Shown one piece after another: positions 1,613 through 32,972 of a DNA stretch of 64,000 nucleotides (its first letter is position 1; every line of letters begins with the position of its first letter). Below the pieces are notes generated by a model. That model ran no database searches. It was not told the origin of the DNA and saw nothing but the letters and a program-made list of their open reading frames with translations. The translations under genes were made by a program, and so were the position numbers. Source of the DNA: an archaeon (GTDB taxonomy: Archaea; Undinarchaeota; CAZHTU01; JBDRCC01); the NCBI GenBank assembly GCA_043822065.1, contig JBDRCC010000021.1, forward strand, positions 32,001 through 96,000. Direction: 5' to 3'.

Positions 1613-1939
1613 ATGACGACCCTTCTCGCCGTAAGGGCGCCCTACCCGGAGCTGAAGCGGCACATCCACCACCTCTCGGATGTTGTCTACATGTACTTCA
1701 TAGACATCTCTGACATCTCCGGATGGAGGTTCTACGACTTCCACGGGCGCCTCCTGCGCGCCCACCAGCACCTGCGCTCCCTCCGCGACCTCCGGGGCGG
1801 GAAAATGCGGATTGAGTTTGGCACTGACTTCCAGGAAAAGCTCACCAGCGTCGCCCTTGAGGAGCGCGCCGACAAAATCGTCCTTCCCGTCGCGGAGGCG
1901 CCTGCCGGCGACCTTGGGGTGGAGGTGATATACCTTTGA
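1613..1939 (+). CDS. universal stress protein (USP)-like protein
   Basis: Pattern RIEFGTDFQEKLTSVALEERADKIVL resembles the USP core. It is coupled to the next gene by a TTGA overlap. Confidence 0.5.
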   Translation: MTTLLAVRAPYPELKRHIHHLSDVVYMYFIDISDISGWRFYDFHGRLLRAHQHLRSLRDLRGGKMRIEFGTDFQEKLTSVALEERADKIVLPVAEAPAGDLGVEVIYL

Positions 1940-3048
1940 GGGCGCTTGTCCCCCTCTTCCCGTGCTCGTCGCGCGCGGAAAAAGCCGCTGAAAAGGCAAA
2001 GAGCAACGCCGACGAGGTCGTCCTTGCCTACCTTCTCCCTGCAAAATACGCCAAGGTGTTTTCGTTCACCAAGTTCCTCTTCTACGGCTTGTGCGGCAAC
2101 TACGCGCTCAACTACCTTGAGGAGAAGATGCCCCCTGCGAAGGTGAAGAAGATAATGCTCTACGGCGACCAGAAGGCTGAAATCCTCCGCGCCTTCAAGC
2201 GGGAGAAGTGCGACGTGGTGATTGCGGAGGCATGGCAGCAGAAGGAGTACAACATACTCCGCGAGGTCTCCACGGAGGTTCCGACAATAACCATATTCCG
2301 CAGGGGGAGCTTCAGCTACGCCCAGGGCAGCGCAACTCCAGCGGTCTCCCGCGAGGTCAAGGGCTTTGGCAAGGAGCCCCTCGACGAGATTCTCTGGAGC
2401 CTCTACTCAAAAGACAACCTAACCGCAAAAAAGCCCCAGCCCGAGCCGCCAGTCATGCCTGACGACTGGGTCCGCGCGTTCAAGACGGGCGAGTTCCTCT
2501 CGATATTCTTCCGCACCGGCCTCATATTCGAAAAGGACATGCTCGACTCGCTTCTTGAGAGGGAGCCAGAGCAAGACACGTATGACCTGCTGAAGAAGCT
2601 TGCCCACAGGATGTACGTCCTCCTGAAGTTCAAGAGCCCGCCGGAGCCTAATCTCCTGGAGTGGTGGGCAGAGACGTCCGCATTACCAGACGACCACGGC
2701 GCCTGCGCATCATCCCTCCTTGAAAAGATGGAGCGGATCGGCCACCTTTCGAACCACGAACGCGTTTTTTTAGCGTCCTACCTCGGCTGCCTGCGCGGGG
2801 TCAACTCCAAGTCCATTCTCCGCCTGTTCGAGCATAATTTGATTGACCACGAGCCGAAGATAAGCGCGTTCAACACCTACCAGATACTCGGGCTCTTCAG
2901 CGGAAAGCCTTACGTCGTCTCTGACAACTATGCCCGCGCCCACGGGATTTGCAAAGGCTGCGAGCGCGAAGGGCAGCCCTGCCGCATACAAATGCTCTAC
3001 CTCAAGTGGCTTGAGAAGGAAAGAAGGCACGCCAGGGAAAAAGCCTAG
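1936..3048 (+). CDS. USP-like N-terminal domain fused to a primase large subunit (PriL) C-terminal Fe-S-like domain
   Basis: N-terminal MRALVP...LYGDQKAEILRAFKREKCDVVI is USP-like. C-terminal GAC...GHLSNHERVFLASYL...ILRLF...DHEPKISAFNTYQI...Y...GICKGC resembles PriL-CTD. Confidence 0.6.
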   Translation: MRALVPLFPCSSRAEKAAEKAKSNADEVVLAYLLPAKYAKVFSFTKFLFYGLCGNYALNYLEEKMPPAKVKKIMLYGDQKAEILRAFKREKCDVVIAEAWQQKEYNILREVSTEVPTITIFRRGSFSYAQGSATPAVSREVKGFGKEPLDEILWSLYSKDNLTAKKPQPEPPVMPDDWVRAFKTGEFLSIFFRTGLIFEKDMLDSLLEREPEQDTYDLLKKLAHRMYVLLKFKSPPEPNLLEWWAETSALPDDHGACASSLLEKMERIGHLSNHERVFLASYLGCLRGVNSKSILRLFEHNLIDHEPKISAFNTYQILGLFSGKPYVVSDNYARAHGICKGCEREGQPCRIQMLYLKWLEKERRHAREKA

Positions 3049-4118
3049 TTCTTGTATTTTATGTACGTCTGCAGCGTAGCCTGCGCAAGCCCGAGCCCGA
3101 GCGGCCCGAGGACTAAGCCCTTAACGCCCCAGATGAGCGGCCCGCCTATGAAGCCGAGCAGGACTATGAGCGGGTGTATGCTTCCGGACTTTCCCGCCAG
3201 CGTCGGCCTTATGTAAAAGTCAGGCAGGAGCATCAGGAATACCACATCGAACGCTAGTATTATGATTGAGTTAACCACCGCCACTGCCGCGGGCTGCGTG
3301 CTCAGCAGCCAGAAGACAATCGGCACAAAGATGATTGGCGTCCCTATCAGCGGAAGGAGCATGCAGACCCCCACTAGTATGCCAAGGAAAACCGCATATG
3401 CCGTTGTCATGAAAGGCACAATCCCAAAGGCGCCCATGACCATGAACCCGGCCGTCGCAATAAACATGCCTATCAGGGAGGTGACAACGTGCCCTATGAA
3501 GAGCCCGTGCGCAATCCTCTCAACGTGCTTCATCAGCTCCACGAGGAACTCCTGGTTCTTCGGGATCCTCCGGTTTATGCTGTCGACTATCCTTGGGCCG
3601 TCCCGTATGAAATAATACGTCGTTATCAGGTAGACCGGGACCTGGATGAAAACCCTGCTTGAGAACGAGGCTATCGTGCCAGTCACGCTTACCCCGAAGT
3701 TAAGGAGCATCTCCCTGACCCGCAGGCCTATTACCTCCGAGAAGACCTCGAGGCCCATGCCGTTCAGCGCACTCTGTATCTTTGCCGCAATCGCCGGCGA
3801 GTAGTAGATTAAATCAATGAGAAGCCCTGAGCCCCTTGACGTGGTCAAGAAGGAAATCGTCTGGAAGAAAAGCAGAACGAGCGGGATAATCAGGATGAGC
3901 ATTGAAAGGAATGCCGATAGGGCGTACGAGCCAAGTATCCTGTTGCCGGTCCTTTTCCCTAGCTCATTCACCTTCTTTGTCAGCGGGTAGACTATGTACG
4001 CGGTTACGGCGCCCATAATCACTACCCCGGCAAAGAAGTCCAGCACCTTCCAGCTCAGGAAGGCTACAAACAGGGTTGACGCCAATACGACAATGCTCCA
4101 AAAGGTCCGCTCTTGCAT
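3045..4118 (-). CDS. AI-2E family transporter
   Basis: YYFIRDG and DFYIRPTLAGKSGSIHPLIVLLGFIGGPLIWGVKGLVLGP motifs. Confidence 0.92.
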   Translation of the reverse strand: MQERTFWSIVVLASTLFVAFLSWKVLDFFAGVVIMGAVTAYIVYPLTKKVNELGKRTGNRILGSYALSAFLSMLILIIPLVLLFFQTISFLTTSRGSGLLIDLIYYSPAIAAKIQSALNGMGLEVFSEVIGLRVREMLLNFGVSVTGTIASFSSRVFIQVPVYLITTYYFIRDGPRIVDSINRRIPKNQEFLVELMKHVERIAHGLFIGHVVTSLIGMFIATAGFMVMGAFGIVPFMTTAYAVFLGILVGVCMLLPLIGTPIIFVPIVFWLLSTQPAAVAVVNSIIILAFDVVFLMLLPDFYIRPTLAGKSGSIHPLIVLLGFIGGPLIWGVKGLVLGPLGLGLAQATLQTYIKYKN

Positions 4119-4156: not shown

Positions 4157-4693
4157 ATGGACAGCCTTAACGACCTATTCAAACAGGCAAAAAGCATGGA
4201 CATACGGAACATCAGGAAGTACCTGCACCCGTACATCAAGGAGTTCATACGCCAGGAAAAGACCCGCCCGAAGAACGTCGGGCTCCTCATCGACGGCCCG
4301 AACATCGTGCGGAAGGAGTTCTCTGTCGACTTCGACGAGATACGCAAAAAGGCGCAGAAGTACGGCGACCTGAAGATCGCAAAGGCGTTCCTCAACCAGT
4401 ACGCCAAGGAGAAGCTCATAGAGGCAATCGCAAACCAGGGTTTCGAGCCCGTCATGTCCATTTCGGAGGACGTCGACGTCGACGTCGCTGTCGAGGCGGT
4501 CGAGCTGATACACAACCCGCTGATAGACATCATAATCATCGCCTCAAGGGACTCGGACTACCTCCCGGTTTTCCGCCTTGCCAAGGAGAAGAACAAGACG
4601 ATAATCGTCTTCGGCGCAGAGCCAGGCTTCAGTCAGGCGCTGAAAAACGCAGCCGACAAGTACGAAGTCCTGGGCAAAAGGAAATTTATATGA
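4157..4693 (+). CDS. NYN (PIN-like) domain protein, TIGR00288-type
   Basis: LLIDGPN, DVDV and SRDSDYLP acidic motifs. Confidence 0.9.
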   Translation: MDSLNDLFKQAKSMDIRNIRKYLHPYIKEFIRQEKTRPKNVGLLIDGPNIVRKEFSVDFDEIRKKAQKYGDLKIAKAFLNQYAKEKLIEAIANQGFEPVMSISEDVDVDVAVEAVELIHNPLIDIIIIASRDSDYLPVFRLAKEKNKTIIVFGAEPGFSQALKNAADKYEVLGKRKFI

Positions 4694-12435: not shown

Positions 12436-12849
12436 TCACGGATAAATAGTTACTATGTCCCCGTCCTTCACGTCAAGGGCTGCCCTGAGGTTTATCGGCC
12501 CGAGTATCTCGATTACCTCGTCGTCCTCCCTCTGCCTGTCGGGGAATATGACTGCGCACCTGGTCGTCTGCGCCTCGCCGTGCTCCAGGGTGGATATCCG
12601 CACGCACTTCGCCCCGCCGTAGTCGTCCACCATGTCCTTCTTGCGGGTGTTAACCTTCATGAAGCCCTCGAGCCGCTCTCCTGTCAGCGTCCTAAGGTGC
12701 TCCCTTACCGTAGGGGTGACCTGGAGGCAAAGCGTCCCTGAAAAAGGGGTGTAGCCAAGGATGCGCTTGAACTGCTTGGTATACTCCGTCATGGAGACAA
12801 AAGCTGCGCCTTCCCCCGCCCCACTTCTAACTATGCCTGAGAAGCTCAT
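12436..12849 (-). CDS. ribK: CTP-dependent riboflavin kinase
   Basis: GIVRSGAGEGAAF, GYTPFSGTL and EILGPINLRAALDVKDGD. Confidence 0.9.
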   Translation of the reverse strand: MSFSGIVRSGAGEGAAFVSMTEYTKQFKRILGYTPFSGTLCLQVTPTVREHLRTLTGERLEGFMKVNTRKKDMVDDYGGAKCVRISTLEHGEAQTTRCAVIFPDRQREDDEVIEILGPINLRAALDVKDGDIVTIYP

Positions 12850-31811: not shown

Positions 31812-32972
31812 ATGGGAGAATTTCTTCCTTCTGACAGGATGGCACGCATACGCCCATCCCGCATACGCGAGCTGTTCGACCTTGCGCAGGGAGTCGAGGG
31901 CATAATAAGCTTCGGCATAGGCGAGCCCGACTTCAACACCCCTGAGCACATAAAGGAAGCCTGCAAAAAGTCGCTCGACAGCAACCAGACGCACTACTCC
32001 CCGACCGCCGGGATTTTCGAGCTCAGAAAGGCGCTTGCGGAGAAATACCAGACCCAGTACAACACCACTTACGACCCGAAGTCCGAGATACTCATAACCG
32101 TCGGCGGTTGCCAGGCGCTGTTTGTCATACCGCTCTGCTTCCTCAACAAAGGCGACGAGCTGATAATCCCCGACCCGGGGTTCCTCACCTACGAAGCGCA
32201 GGCGCACATCGCCGACGCCAAGCCGGTCTTCCTCTCAATGAAGGAGACGGACGGGTTCAAGGTGGACATTGACGCCCTCGAGAACACAATAACGGAAAAG
32301 ACCCGCATGCTCATCCTCAACTTCCCATCAAACCCTACGGGCGCGATGATGTCCAAAAAGGAGTTTGAGCAGGTAGCCGAAATCGTCGAGGGCAAGGATA
32401 TCATCGTCGTTTCGGACGAGTGCTACGAGCCCATAGTCTACGACGGCTACAAGCCGGTCCACTTCGGGGAAATCCTCCGCGAGCAGACAATCGCAATCAA
32501 CAGCTTCTCAAAGACCTACGCAATGGCTGGCTGGAGGGTCGGCTTCGTCACCGCCCCCGCGGGAATGATGAAGCAGCTCTACAAGATACAGCAGTATTCA
32601 GCAGCCGCGGTGAGCACCCCGATGCAGGAGGCATGCGTTGCGGCGCTGAAGGGCCCCCAGGACGCTACAAGAAAGATGGTTGAAGCGTACGACAAGCGGA
32701 GGAAGTTCCTCGTCCGCGCCCTCAACGATGTCGACGGAATCACCTGCCCGAACCCCGGCGGAGCCTTCTACGTCTTCCCAAACATAAAGGAAACAGGCAA
32801 GACATCCGACGAGGTCGCCAAGCACCTGCTCACCGACGCAAAGGTCGTCACCGTCCCCGGAAACTCGTTCGGCGCGCACGGTGAGGGCTACCTGCGGCTG
32901 ACTTATGCCACCTCAATGGCGCAGATAAAAGAGGGGGCGGAAAGGATAAAAGAATCAATCGCTAAATTGTAA
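31812..32972 (+). CDS. class I/II PLP aminotransferase (aspartate/aromatic)
   Basis: IGEPDF, NFPSNPTG, SDECY and SFSKTYAMAGWRVG. Confidence 0.95.
   Translation: MGEFLPSDRMARIRPSRIRELFDLAQGVEGIISFGIGEPDFNTPEHIKEACKKSLDSNQTHYSPTAGIFELRKALAEKYQTQYNTTYDPKSEILITVGGCQALFVIPLCFLNKGDELIIPDPGFLTYEAQAHIADAKPVFLSMKETDGFKVDIDALENTITEKTRMLILNFPSNPTGAMMSKKEFEQVAEIVEGKDIIVVSDECYEPIVYDGYKPVHFGEILREQTIAINSFSKTYAMAGWRVGFVTAPAGMMKQLYKIQQYSAAAVSTPMQEACVAALKGPQDATRKMVEAYDKRRKFLVRALNDVDGITCPNPGGAFYVFPNIKETGKTSDEVAKHLLTDAKVVTVPGNSFGAHGEGYLRLTYATSMAQIKEGAERIKESIAKL

Follow-up and report, generated by a model that had tools for sequence, protein, structure and literature searches.

What do two overlapping genes near the start of a stretch of archaeal DNA encode, and does their product belong with DNA primase? 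The window (the whole analyzed stretch of 64,000 nucleotides; positions 32,001 to 96,000 of contig JBDRCC010000021.1, GenBank assembly GCA_043822065.1, phylum Undinarchaeota) carries the pair, here called open reading frame 1 (ORF1) and ORF2, in a genome of 1.03 Mb that is 82% complete. The original prediction took them for an operon of a universal stress protein (USP)-like protein and a fusion of a USP-like domain with the C-terminal domain (CTD) of the primase large subunit PriL. Here, we report that ORF2 very probably belongs to the photolyase/cryptochrome superfamily, and we lean toward reading the pair as a translationally coupled operon for a heterodimer, in which a small USP-like subunit would accompany a repair-inactive, cryptochrome-like [4Fe-4S] protein of that superfamily.

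The gene pair and its relatives

Both ORFs were found where they had been predicted (Table 1); they overlap at TTGA (1936 to 1939), which holds both the TTG start of ORF2 and the stop codon TGA of ORF1. This overlap, together with a Shine-Dalgarno-like string (GGAGGTGAT) 6 bases 5' of the TTG, points to translational coupling of the two genes. An A/T-rich, TATA-box-like string (CTTATATTAATAA) 5' of the ORF1 ATG is a possible archaeal promoter for a leaderless or short-leader operon transcript.

ORF2 was searched with phmmer against 1.84 billion cluster representatives, yielding 11 proteins at an E value of ≤0.001, ORF2 itself included. These were a partial or near-full-length relative (P0002, 58% identity), three full-length relatives (P0003 to P0005; 41 to 35% identity, 374 to 383 amino acids), two N-terminal fragments, and four distant proteins (P0008 to P0011; E values, 3.9e-5 to 1.5e-4). 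Within the phylum, the gene is carried by 3 of 17 species genomes (its own included), which represent three different families of one order; the other 14 (75 to 98% complete) gave no match. The fusion is not unique to this assembly, since copies of ORF2 occur in two other genomes. Relatives of ORF1 number three (P0013, P0014, and positions 228 to 557 of locus L005), with 41 to 56% identity and 30 invariant columns. Apart from the window, upstream DNA is available for L005 only, a locus of a second genus, and there too the two genes share a four-base overlap (ATGA). A single frameshifted gene was ruled out because the 4-base-overlap split recurs in L005 and the ORF1 relatives are separate proteins of 105 to 109 amino acids. 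The N termini of all full-length ORF2 relatives align from column 1 with the TTG-started protein. The gene pair is conserved and is neither a chance arrangement nor an assembly artifact.

For related loci in metagenome and genome contig collections, 203 + 91 pattern matches were obtained, none of which was confirmed by tblastn. Titles and abstract openings of the papers listed in literature searches pointed to no published account of such a family; the sequence tables of short photolyase-like (SPL) proteins in PMC8476157 could hold relatives. Statements cited here from PMC8476157, PMC7736829, PMC4619345, and PMC12082625 refer to excerpts of those papers.

Homology and fold of ORF2

A single-sequence search of ORF1 and ORF2 against Protein Data Bank (PDB) sequences gave nothing meaningful, and an NCBIfam scan of the window assigned no family to either. 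In Pfam, window ORF2 matched three families over residues 257 to 316, all below threshold (DMAP1_like, E value of 0.019; DNA_primase_lrg, 0.056; FAD_binding_7, 0.17); the primase match (PF04104; residues 257 to 314) scored 13.2 bits versus a cut-off of 22.4. Across the five members of the ORF2 family, DNA_primase_lrg matched all five (best E value, 1.8e-4; all far below the level of true PriL) and FAD_binding_7 matched four (best E value, 1.5e-6).

Family profiles separated these candidates. Searched against solved structures, the five-sequence ORF2 profile had a Synechococcus (6-4) photolyase as its best match (8ijy; E value, 0.0012; residues 255 to 367 paired with 344 to 468, with all four conserved cysteines aligned), and PriL was not matched in this search. 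Profile comparison with hhalign gave a probability of 98.3% for five SPL-like proteins (E value, 1.6e-14; 211 columns, residues 151 to 361), versus 32% (E value, 4.8e-4; 100 columns) for the CTDs of the phylum's own primases, which were represented by 15 PriS-PriL-CTD fusions. Against single proteins, the probability was 97.4% (E value, 1.1e-11) for P0019, a four-cysteine SPL-type protein of a Deinococcus plasmid, and 73.8% (E value, 2.9e-5) for a haloarchaeal FeS-BCP. ORF2 alone found a Deinococcus protein with a flavin adenine dinucleotide (FAD)-binding domain by tblastn in a plasmid collection (E value, 4e-9), and BLASTP aligned it with P0019 at 26% identity over 176 amino acids. The four distant phmmer matches are photolyase-like proteins made of the FAD-binding domain only; two carry the database name deoxyribodipyrimidine photo-lyase, and their four cysteines are arranged as described for the SPL class (PMC8476157). 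P0008, P0009, and P0018 pass the FAD_binding_7 cut-off and lack the N-terminal photolyase domain. A PDB search with a mixed alignment (A4) reached photolyases at E values down to 2.3e-16 and was not counted, 4 of its 11 rows being photolyase-like.

The fold agreed with the profiles. An AlphaFold2 model of ORF2, built from a shallow alignment, was of medium confidence (pLDDT, 73; pTM, 0.69), and Foldseek placed cryptochromes and photolyases on top (E values of 1.4e-8 and weaker; probability, 1.00). VIA-align was run both seeded by Foldseek and unbiased over 48,161 chains, with the same whole-length matches: 1iqr (Z, 18.3; 304 residues; root mean square deviation [RMSD], 5.0 Å), PhrB (4dja; Z, 17.6; 342 residues), and many other photolyases and cryptochromes (Z, 16 to 17). 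The matches always spanned residue 1 to about residues 365 to 370, and overall they aligned 304 to 342 of the 370 residues at Z 15 to 18.3. In the unbiased run, residues 1 to 122 also superposed on USPs, namely 4wny (Z, 15.6; RMSD, 1.9 Å over 113 residues), MJ0577 (Z, 14.8), and further ones from Z 14.4 on (overall range, Z 14 to 15.6 and RMSD 1.9 to 2.8 Å), bearing out the USP fold proposed for this end of the protein. The sequence signal was weak there, with profile matches over residues 65 to 105 to MJ0577 (E value, 0.059) and PH0823 (E value, 0.017); Pfam Usp matched two of the five family members (best E value, 5.8e-4) and not window ORF2. The ESM Atlas model of ORF2 was itself poor (pTM, 0.38); it gave no usable feature match and returned mostly USP rows for the N terminus, with one photolyase cluster (TM score, 0.36).

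USPs that bind ATP carry the motif G-x2-G-x9-G-[ST]. As had been predicted, it was absent from all nine sequences scanned from the ORF1 and ORF2 families; the two proteins further differ from USPs in that their domains, instead of forming free USP dimers, would each make up a lobe or subunit of a photolyase-like protein. The whole-length photolyase matches and the USP match of residues 1 to 122 together describe a two-lobed photolyase architecture with a USP-looking N-lobe. The original prediction had not recognized this architecture.

How much of the PriL reading is left? That reading makes ORF2 a PriL-CTD paralogue with USP domains, modulating primase or sensing primer-template ends, and it draws on the PF04104 signal in all five members, on the hhalign match to the phylum's PriL CTDs with the first cysteine aligned, and on the phylum's primase, which lacks a PriL N-terminal domain (NTD). 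The helix bundle around the first cysteine is remotely homologous in both, a [4Fe-4S] cluster is bound or predicted in both, and flavin-dependent catalysis is expected in neither. The H-x2-N-x2-R helix after the first cysteine of ORF2 may also resemble the triphosphate-binding helix of PriL CTDs. Against this stand the far stronger match to photolyase-like proteins, the whole-length photolyase fold, and a cysteine pattern that is not of the PriL type. No PriL-CTD structure was among the 50 matches listed in either VIA-align output, for which the query was the whole chain and photolyase and USP matches filled the lists, so that this absence carries little weight. ORF2 has no PriS or PriL-NTD context, and the genome has a separate primase with its own Fe-S domain, a single 412-amino-acid PriS-PriL-CTD fusion (L001:712-1950; 40.9 bits to PF04104) on another contig (C19), unlinked to the operon. 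Such fusions (412 to 452 amino acids) occur in 15 of the 17 phylum genomes versus 3 of 17 for the operon, which leaves the suggested primase modulator unsupported.

The strings quoted for the PriL pattern are all present (C257; HLSNHERVFLASYL, residues 270 to 283; VVSD, 327 to 330; GICKGC, 337 to 342; QPC, 347 to 349), but the pattern itself was out of register. The phylum's PriL cysteines follow FPPC ... PNC ... GVC ... FC; in hhalign, the cysteines of FPPC and PNC pair with C257 and C342, respectively, after which the alignment ends, leaving the last two PriL cysteines without a counterpart. No ligand of ORF2 is missing at VVSD, and the cysteine of QPC is one of its four invariant cysteines rather than an extra. 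Structure searches returned the USP half of the predicted fusion, and profiles gave, for PriL, only a remote resemblance, which on the alignments is the known distant kinship of the PriL CTD and the photolyase FAD-binding domain (PMC8476157, PMC7736829). We consider PriL-CTD paralogy very improbable and a primase link of the operon extremely unlikely.

A maximum-likelihood tree of 16 helical domains (253 columns, with chosen cut positions; P0010, P0011, and all PriL CTDs left out) recovered the ORF2 family as one clade (99/98) on a long stem. The family and a single long-branched FeS-BCP were split from SPL plus class I sequences (92/97, below the starred level); long-branch attraction is possible. 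An alternative would make the family a surviving deep lineage, close to the origin of photolyases from a PriL-like Fe-S nucleic-acid-binding domain, and not a decayed photolyase. Its Fe-S helical module would dock generic domains of the USP type, one in cis and a second in trans, with no light-driven catalysis. We judge this rather improbable. If true, it would reveal how photolyases came by their two lobes and which purpose the [4Fe-4S] cluster of FeS-BCPs first served; the ancestor of photolyases and cryptochromes is debated, different ones being proposed in PMC8476157 and PMC7736829.

Cysteines, cofactor pocket, and repair residues

Of the eight cysteines in window ORF2, four (C257, C339, C342, and C349) are invariant in the five-sequence family alignment, and C257 is conserved in all 11 sequences of A4. 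The family member in L005 has these four only, and the GCLRG cysteine of ORF2 is His in the other members. The spacing is C-x81-C-x2-C-x6-C (x80 in one member), similar to C-x84-C-x2-C-x3 to x6-C in the retrieved SPL-like proteins; the corresponding spacers are x83-x2-x5 in RfSPL (C155/C239/C242/C248) and x87-x2-x12 in PhrB (C350/C438/C441/C454; both PMC8476157). All four align with ligand cysteines of 8ijy and of the haloarchaeal FeS-BCP. The pattern is of the photolyase type, and from sequence it is highly likely that these four residues of ORF2 bind a [4Fe-4S] cluster.

The best sequence kin of the helical domain are the SPL/NewPHL proteins (RfSPL of Rhodococcus fascians; Xu et al. 2021, PMC8476157; Emmerich et al. 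2020, PMC7736829). They share with ORF2 the C...CxxC...C arrangement with a short last spacer (x6 in ORF2, x5 in RfSPL), an Asn at the position of Escherichia coli photolyase N341, and a compact FAD-binding-type domain. According to the excerpts of PMC8476157, SPLs are reported from bacteria only, have no alpha/beta domain at the N terminus, and mostly have a C-terminal extension, whereas ORF2 begins with a USP-type domain of 122 residues, has no such extension, and has a separate partner gene. SPLs also keep the active site for cyclobutane pyrimidine dimers (CPDs) as well as two residues of the Trp triad (PMC8476157), of which the ORF2 family keeps none (0/7). The FeS-BCP/CryPro (6-4) photolyases (PhrB, 4dja; CryB, 3zxs; 8ijy; Caulobacter, 9hnk; Pfam DPRP) resemble ORF2 in having two lobes with the cluster in the C-terminal roof, four alignable cysteines, the spacing of the Arg/Asp/Asn flavin triad, a K-P-Y...S..Y..R...C motif, and C-x5-Y after the last cysteine. 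They differ in length (ca. 510 versus 370 amino acids) and in an N-terminal lumazine-binding antenna domain in place of the USP-like one. They also differ in the last cysteine spacer (12 versus 6), in His366 (Asn in ORF2), and in the lost W390 equivalent; ORF2 has Ala at the spacing of PhrB W342 (by residue count only, with no gap-aware alignment).

Functional sites were mapped through A4 with the SPL-like proteins for seven family sequences, with residue roles from PMC8476157; these equivalences were drawn from alignments and spacing rather than from an inspected superposition. Relative to E. coli photolyase, the family keeps N341 as Asn273 (7/7), R344 as Arg276 (5/7), D372 as Asp304 (5/7), R278 as Arg225 (5/7), and S238 as Ser189 (5/7), and D374 is conservatively replaced by Glu306 (7/7). 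Asn313 is invariant in the five-sequence alignment and is Asn in two further copies too. In the Caulobacter FeS-BCP, the isoalloxazine is contacted by N405, R368, and D396, with water at N5 instead of Asn (PMC12082625); R276, D304, and N313 of ORF2 have the same spacing (+28, +9). Asn273 and Arg276 are the equivalents of FeS-BCP H366 and R368/369 (roles from PMC8476157, PMC12082625, and PMC4619345). PhrB His366 lies 16 residues after the first cysteine, where ORF2 has Asn273, making it a natural form of the H366N mutant, which shows 0% repair (PMC4619345). Tyr326 (6/7), Tyr332 (Tyr or Phe), and Tyr355 (invariant) correspond to PhrB Y424, Y430, and Y460, on the basis of the K-P-Y...S..Y..R...C motif and the C-x5-Y spacing; Y424 is required for lesion binding. 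The invariant D177 was considered as PhrB Mg-binding Asp254 and rejected, since the hhalign register, haloarchaeal FeS-BCP motifs, and primer-derived PhrB context put Asp254 at P171-P172.

Could ORF2 nonetheless be a working minimal flavin and Fe-S photolyase with an unconventional active site, the only one of these archaea? Its closest kin class has shown CPD repair (RfSPL; PMC8476157). The flavin triad is kept in 5/7 and Tyr326 in 6/7. No other photolyase domain was found in its own genome, and none of the 17 phylum genomes has FAD_binding_7 above the cut-off. A CTP-dependent riboflavin kinase is encoded in the window at 12445 to 12831 (−) (PF01982; E value, 1.2e-25), so flavin nucleotides are plausibly available. 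The repair residues speak otherwise. The CPD pocket (E274, W277, M345, and W384), the electron routes (W382/W359 and, in PhrB, W390), and N378 are each lost in all seven sequences, and the catalytic His position of (6-4) enzymes is Asn throughout. NewPHL/SPL enzymes keep the CPD-pocket residues strictly (PMC7736829), and 14 of the 17 phylum genomes have no such gene at all. A working photolyase is improbable. With every scored residue for dimer binding, dimer splitting, and flavin photoreduction lost, ORF2 is most likely repair inactive and cryptochrome-like.

We read this pattern, judged from the alignments, as selection that maintains the cluster site together with portions of the cofactor pocket and of the DNA-contact surface, but not photorepair or photoreduction chemistry. 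Flavin binding by ORF2 is a tentative proposal, somewhat short of probable, and DNA binding is put forward with the same reserve. A flavin-free relic would go further, keeping fold and cluster only, with the heterodimer acting purely as a scaffold or as an Fe-S switch labile to oxygen or redox changes, and binding no nucleic acid. The four cysteines are the most strictly conserved functional feature, the Arg-Asp pair is lost in one lineage, the net charge gives no DNA-binding signature, and the role of the cluster in prokaryotic (6-4) enzymes is itself described as "yet unknown" (PMC12082625). Yet N273, E306, N313, Y326, Y355, P-x-D-W, and E-W-W-A are conserved beyond what a cluster needs, and most of these positions fall within or beside the ancestral cofactor/DNA site. 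We regard such a relic as unlikely.

The predicted complex, its reading, and its surroundings

ORF1 had no Pfam or NCBIfam match. Its AlphaFold2 model was weak (pLDDT, 63; beta-alpha-beta-alpha-beta-alpha-beta-beta) and gave no Foldseek match at an E value of ≤0.001, and in the unbiased VIA-align run its best matches were RNase-H-like integrase cores (Z, 7.3), with USPs lower (Z, 4.5 to 5.0). The ESM Atlas model of ORF1 (pTM, 0.60) in contrast matched Usp clusters over 100 to 108 residues (TM score, 0.72 to 0.82), one row passing the bar for the Usp name. The product of the upstream gene is probably USP-like, as had been predicted, with moderate support that comes from the Atlas model more than from the AlphaFold2 one. 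Pfam Usp had no match in the genome at an E value of ≤0.1. Two proposed origins for ORF1 were unsupported by hhalign, namely, duplication of the ORF2 N-domain (probability, 0.6%) and kinship with P0020, a Deinococcus protein resembling the photolyase N-domain (probability, 0.3%).

Complex prediction of ORF1 with ORF2 gave an ipSAE, a measure of model confidence, of 0.88, versus 0.00 for the best of three controls. Of 157 solved complexes, 116 reached this mark, as did 2 of 215 mismatched pairs; these counts apply only approximately, custom alignments having been used. The runs agreed in at least 97% of contacts, with a partner pLDDT of at least 85. The predicted interface joins ORF1 residues 32 to 55, 64 to 70, 79, and 83 with ORF2 residues 123 to 124 and 203 to 231. 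The former E274, W277, and R278 positions (ORF2 residues 221, 224, and 225) sit on a helix within the contact stretch, residue 224 being in the interface, and from this location ORF1 may cover the rim of the former lesion pocket. On these models and the gene overlap kept in L005, a heterodimer is likely.

The reading we favor for the operon is then as follows. ORF2 would be a deep-branching, miniaturized member of the superfamily, in which a USP-type domain is docked on a shortened helical domain carrying the [4Fe-4S] cluster. Of the cofactor pocket, it would keep the core, made up of Asn273, Asn313, and a salt bridge between Arg276 and Asp304, and it would also keep Tyr326, the tyrosine with which FeS-BCPs hold damaged DNA. 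ORF1 would clamp helix 213-231, which lines the lesion pocket in photolyases. ORF2 may bind a nucleotide-type ligand (a flavin or a nucleic acid end), DNA, or both, and may report or transmit a redox state.

Several observations weigh against this reading. Both family alignments are shallow (five sequences for ORF2, four for ORF1). Each of the three genomic copies scores below the 27-bit cut-off of FAD_binding_7 (PF03441; 12.2, 19.6, and 25.9 bits), and DPRP (PF04244) had no match in the 17 phylum genomes or, at an E value of ≤10, in the five family members. The profiles favor SPL-like kin and the tree places the family beside FeS-BCP, so that the position in the superfamily differs by method. 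Residues 123 to 142 and 172 to 208 of the ORF2 monomer model are below a pLDDT of 50. P0004 and L004, sister sequences in the tree, both have Phe and Gly in place of Arg276 and Asp304, and with the pair missing in 2/7, a flavin may be limited to some members or lacking in all of them. The net charge gives no hint of DNA binding, as noted above, nor do the genomic neighbors hint at function, and both the interface and a sensor role are model-based proposals.

If the favored reading is right, the operon adds to the superfamily an archaeal class of 370 amino acids, which retains the cluster and some of the cofactor pocket, lacks the scored repair residues, and has recruited a second subunit. The superfamily network of PMC7736829 was built from PF00875, PF04244, and IPR005101; ORF2 is below the cut-offs of PF03441, PF04244, and PF00875 and was probably missed by published surveys for this reason. 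Provided that the protein can be produced, the pair would offer a small system for cluster function without photorepair and a test case for the joining of the photolyase lobes, limited by its rarity (few sequences, in one order of a phylum of small-genome archaea).

Table 1. Coordinates, within the window, of the ORF1/ORF2 operon and its neighbors
Feature	Position	Strand	Remark
ORF, 134 amino acids	881-1285	+	Weak HTH_20 match (E 0.051); adjoins the coiled-coil ORF
Coiled-coil ORF, 95 amino acids	1282-1569	−	Divergent from ORF1; bZIP-like matches (bZIP_1, E 1.1e-5, below cut-off)
TATA-box-like A/T-rich string CTTATATTAATAA	1585-1597	+	About 16-28 bases 5' of the ORF1 ATG; sequence reading
ORF1, small alpha/beta protein, probably USP-like; predicted partner of ORF2	1613-1939	+	108 amino acids; ATG start
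Shine-Dalgarno-like string GGAGGTGAT	1921-1929	+	Sequence reading
ORF2, miniaturized protein of the photolyase/cryptochrome superfamily (very probable)	1936-3048	+	370 amino acids; TTG start
ORF2 residues 1-122, USP-type (HUP) alpha/beta domain	1936-2301	+	At the position of the photolyase N-terminal domain
ORF2 residues 123-148, interdomain linker	2302-2379	+	Low model confidence (pLDDT <50 for 123-142)
ORF2 residues 149-370, compact all-helical domain	2380-3045	+	Homologous to the photolyase FAD-binding domain; C-terminal Fe-S "roof"
Cys257 codon	2704-2706	+	First predicted [4Fe-4S] ligand
Codons 273-276 (N-H-E-R)	2752-2763	+	Asn273 and Arg276; alignment-based site table
Cys339, Cys342, and Cys349 codons	2950-2982	+	C-x2-C-x6-C; three further predicted cluster ligands
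AI-2E-family transporter gene	3045-4118	−	Convergent to ORF2; stop codons share the palindrome CTAG (3045-3048)
NYN-domain protein	4157-4693	+	TIGR00288 family (E 1.9e-58)
ORF, 97 amino acids	4712-5005	+	No Pfam match at E ≤0.001
ORF, 304 amino acids	5071-5985	−	No Pfam match at E ≤0.001; membrane-protein look
ORF, 181 amino acids	5859-6404	−	No Pfam match at E ≤0.001; membrane-protein look
Type II/IV secretion (T2SSE/PilB-like) ATPase, 580 amino acids	6477-8219	+	N-terminal 4Fe-4S dicluster ferredoxin domain; unusual fusion

A convergent AI-2E-family transporter gene follows ORF2 or its homologue in all three loci compared (the window, L004, and L005). In L005 (relative G002), the start of ORF1 overlaps, as ATGA, the stop of an upstream ORF (1 to 231) whose product has a hydrophobic, probably membrane-spanning C terminus; the operon there may have a third gene, whereas in the window the gene 5' of ORF1 is divergent.

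A loose parallel to ORF1/ORF2 was seen on the Deinococcus sp. QL22 plasmid NZ_CP097153.1 (L025), where a four-cysteine gene for an FAD-binding domain only (2306 to 3079) overlaps by 4 bases a downstream gene (3076 to 3597). The 173-amino-acid product of the latter has a weak match to the photolyase N-terminal domain (PF00875; E value, 2.3e-4, below cut-off), and the pair looks like a split, order-swapped photolyase.

Among the primases, the gene after the fusion of the window's own genome (L001:1947-2432) encodes a Gins51 C-terminal domain. Twelve of the primases show four cysteines in the Fe-S domain, but the remaining three, of genus g11 (L016, L018, and L019), show only three, a shorter single-Cys stretch replacing the usual two-Cys G-V-C-x-P-D-x-F-C, a change that possibly alters their cluster ligation.

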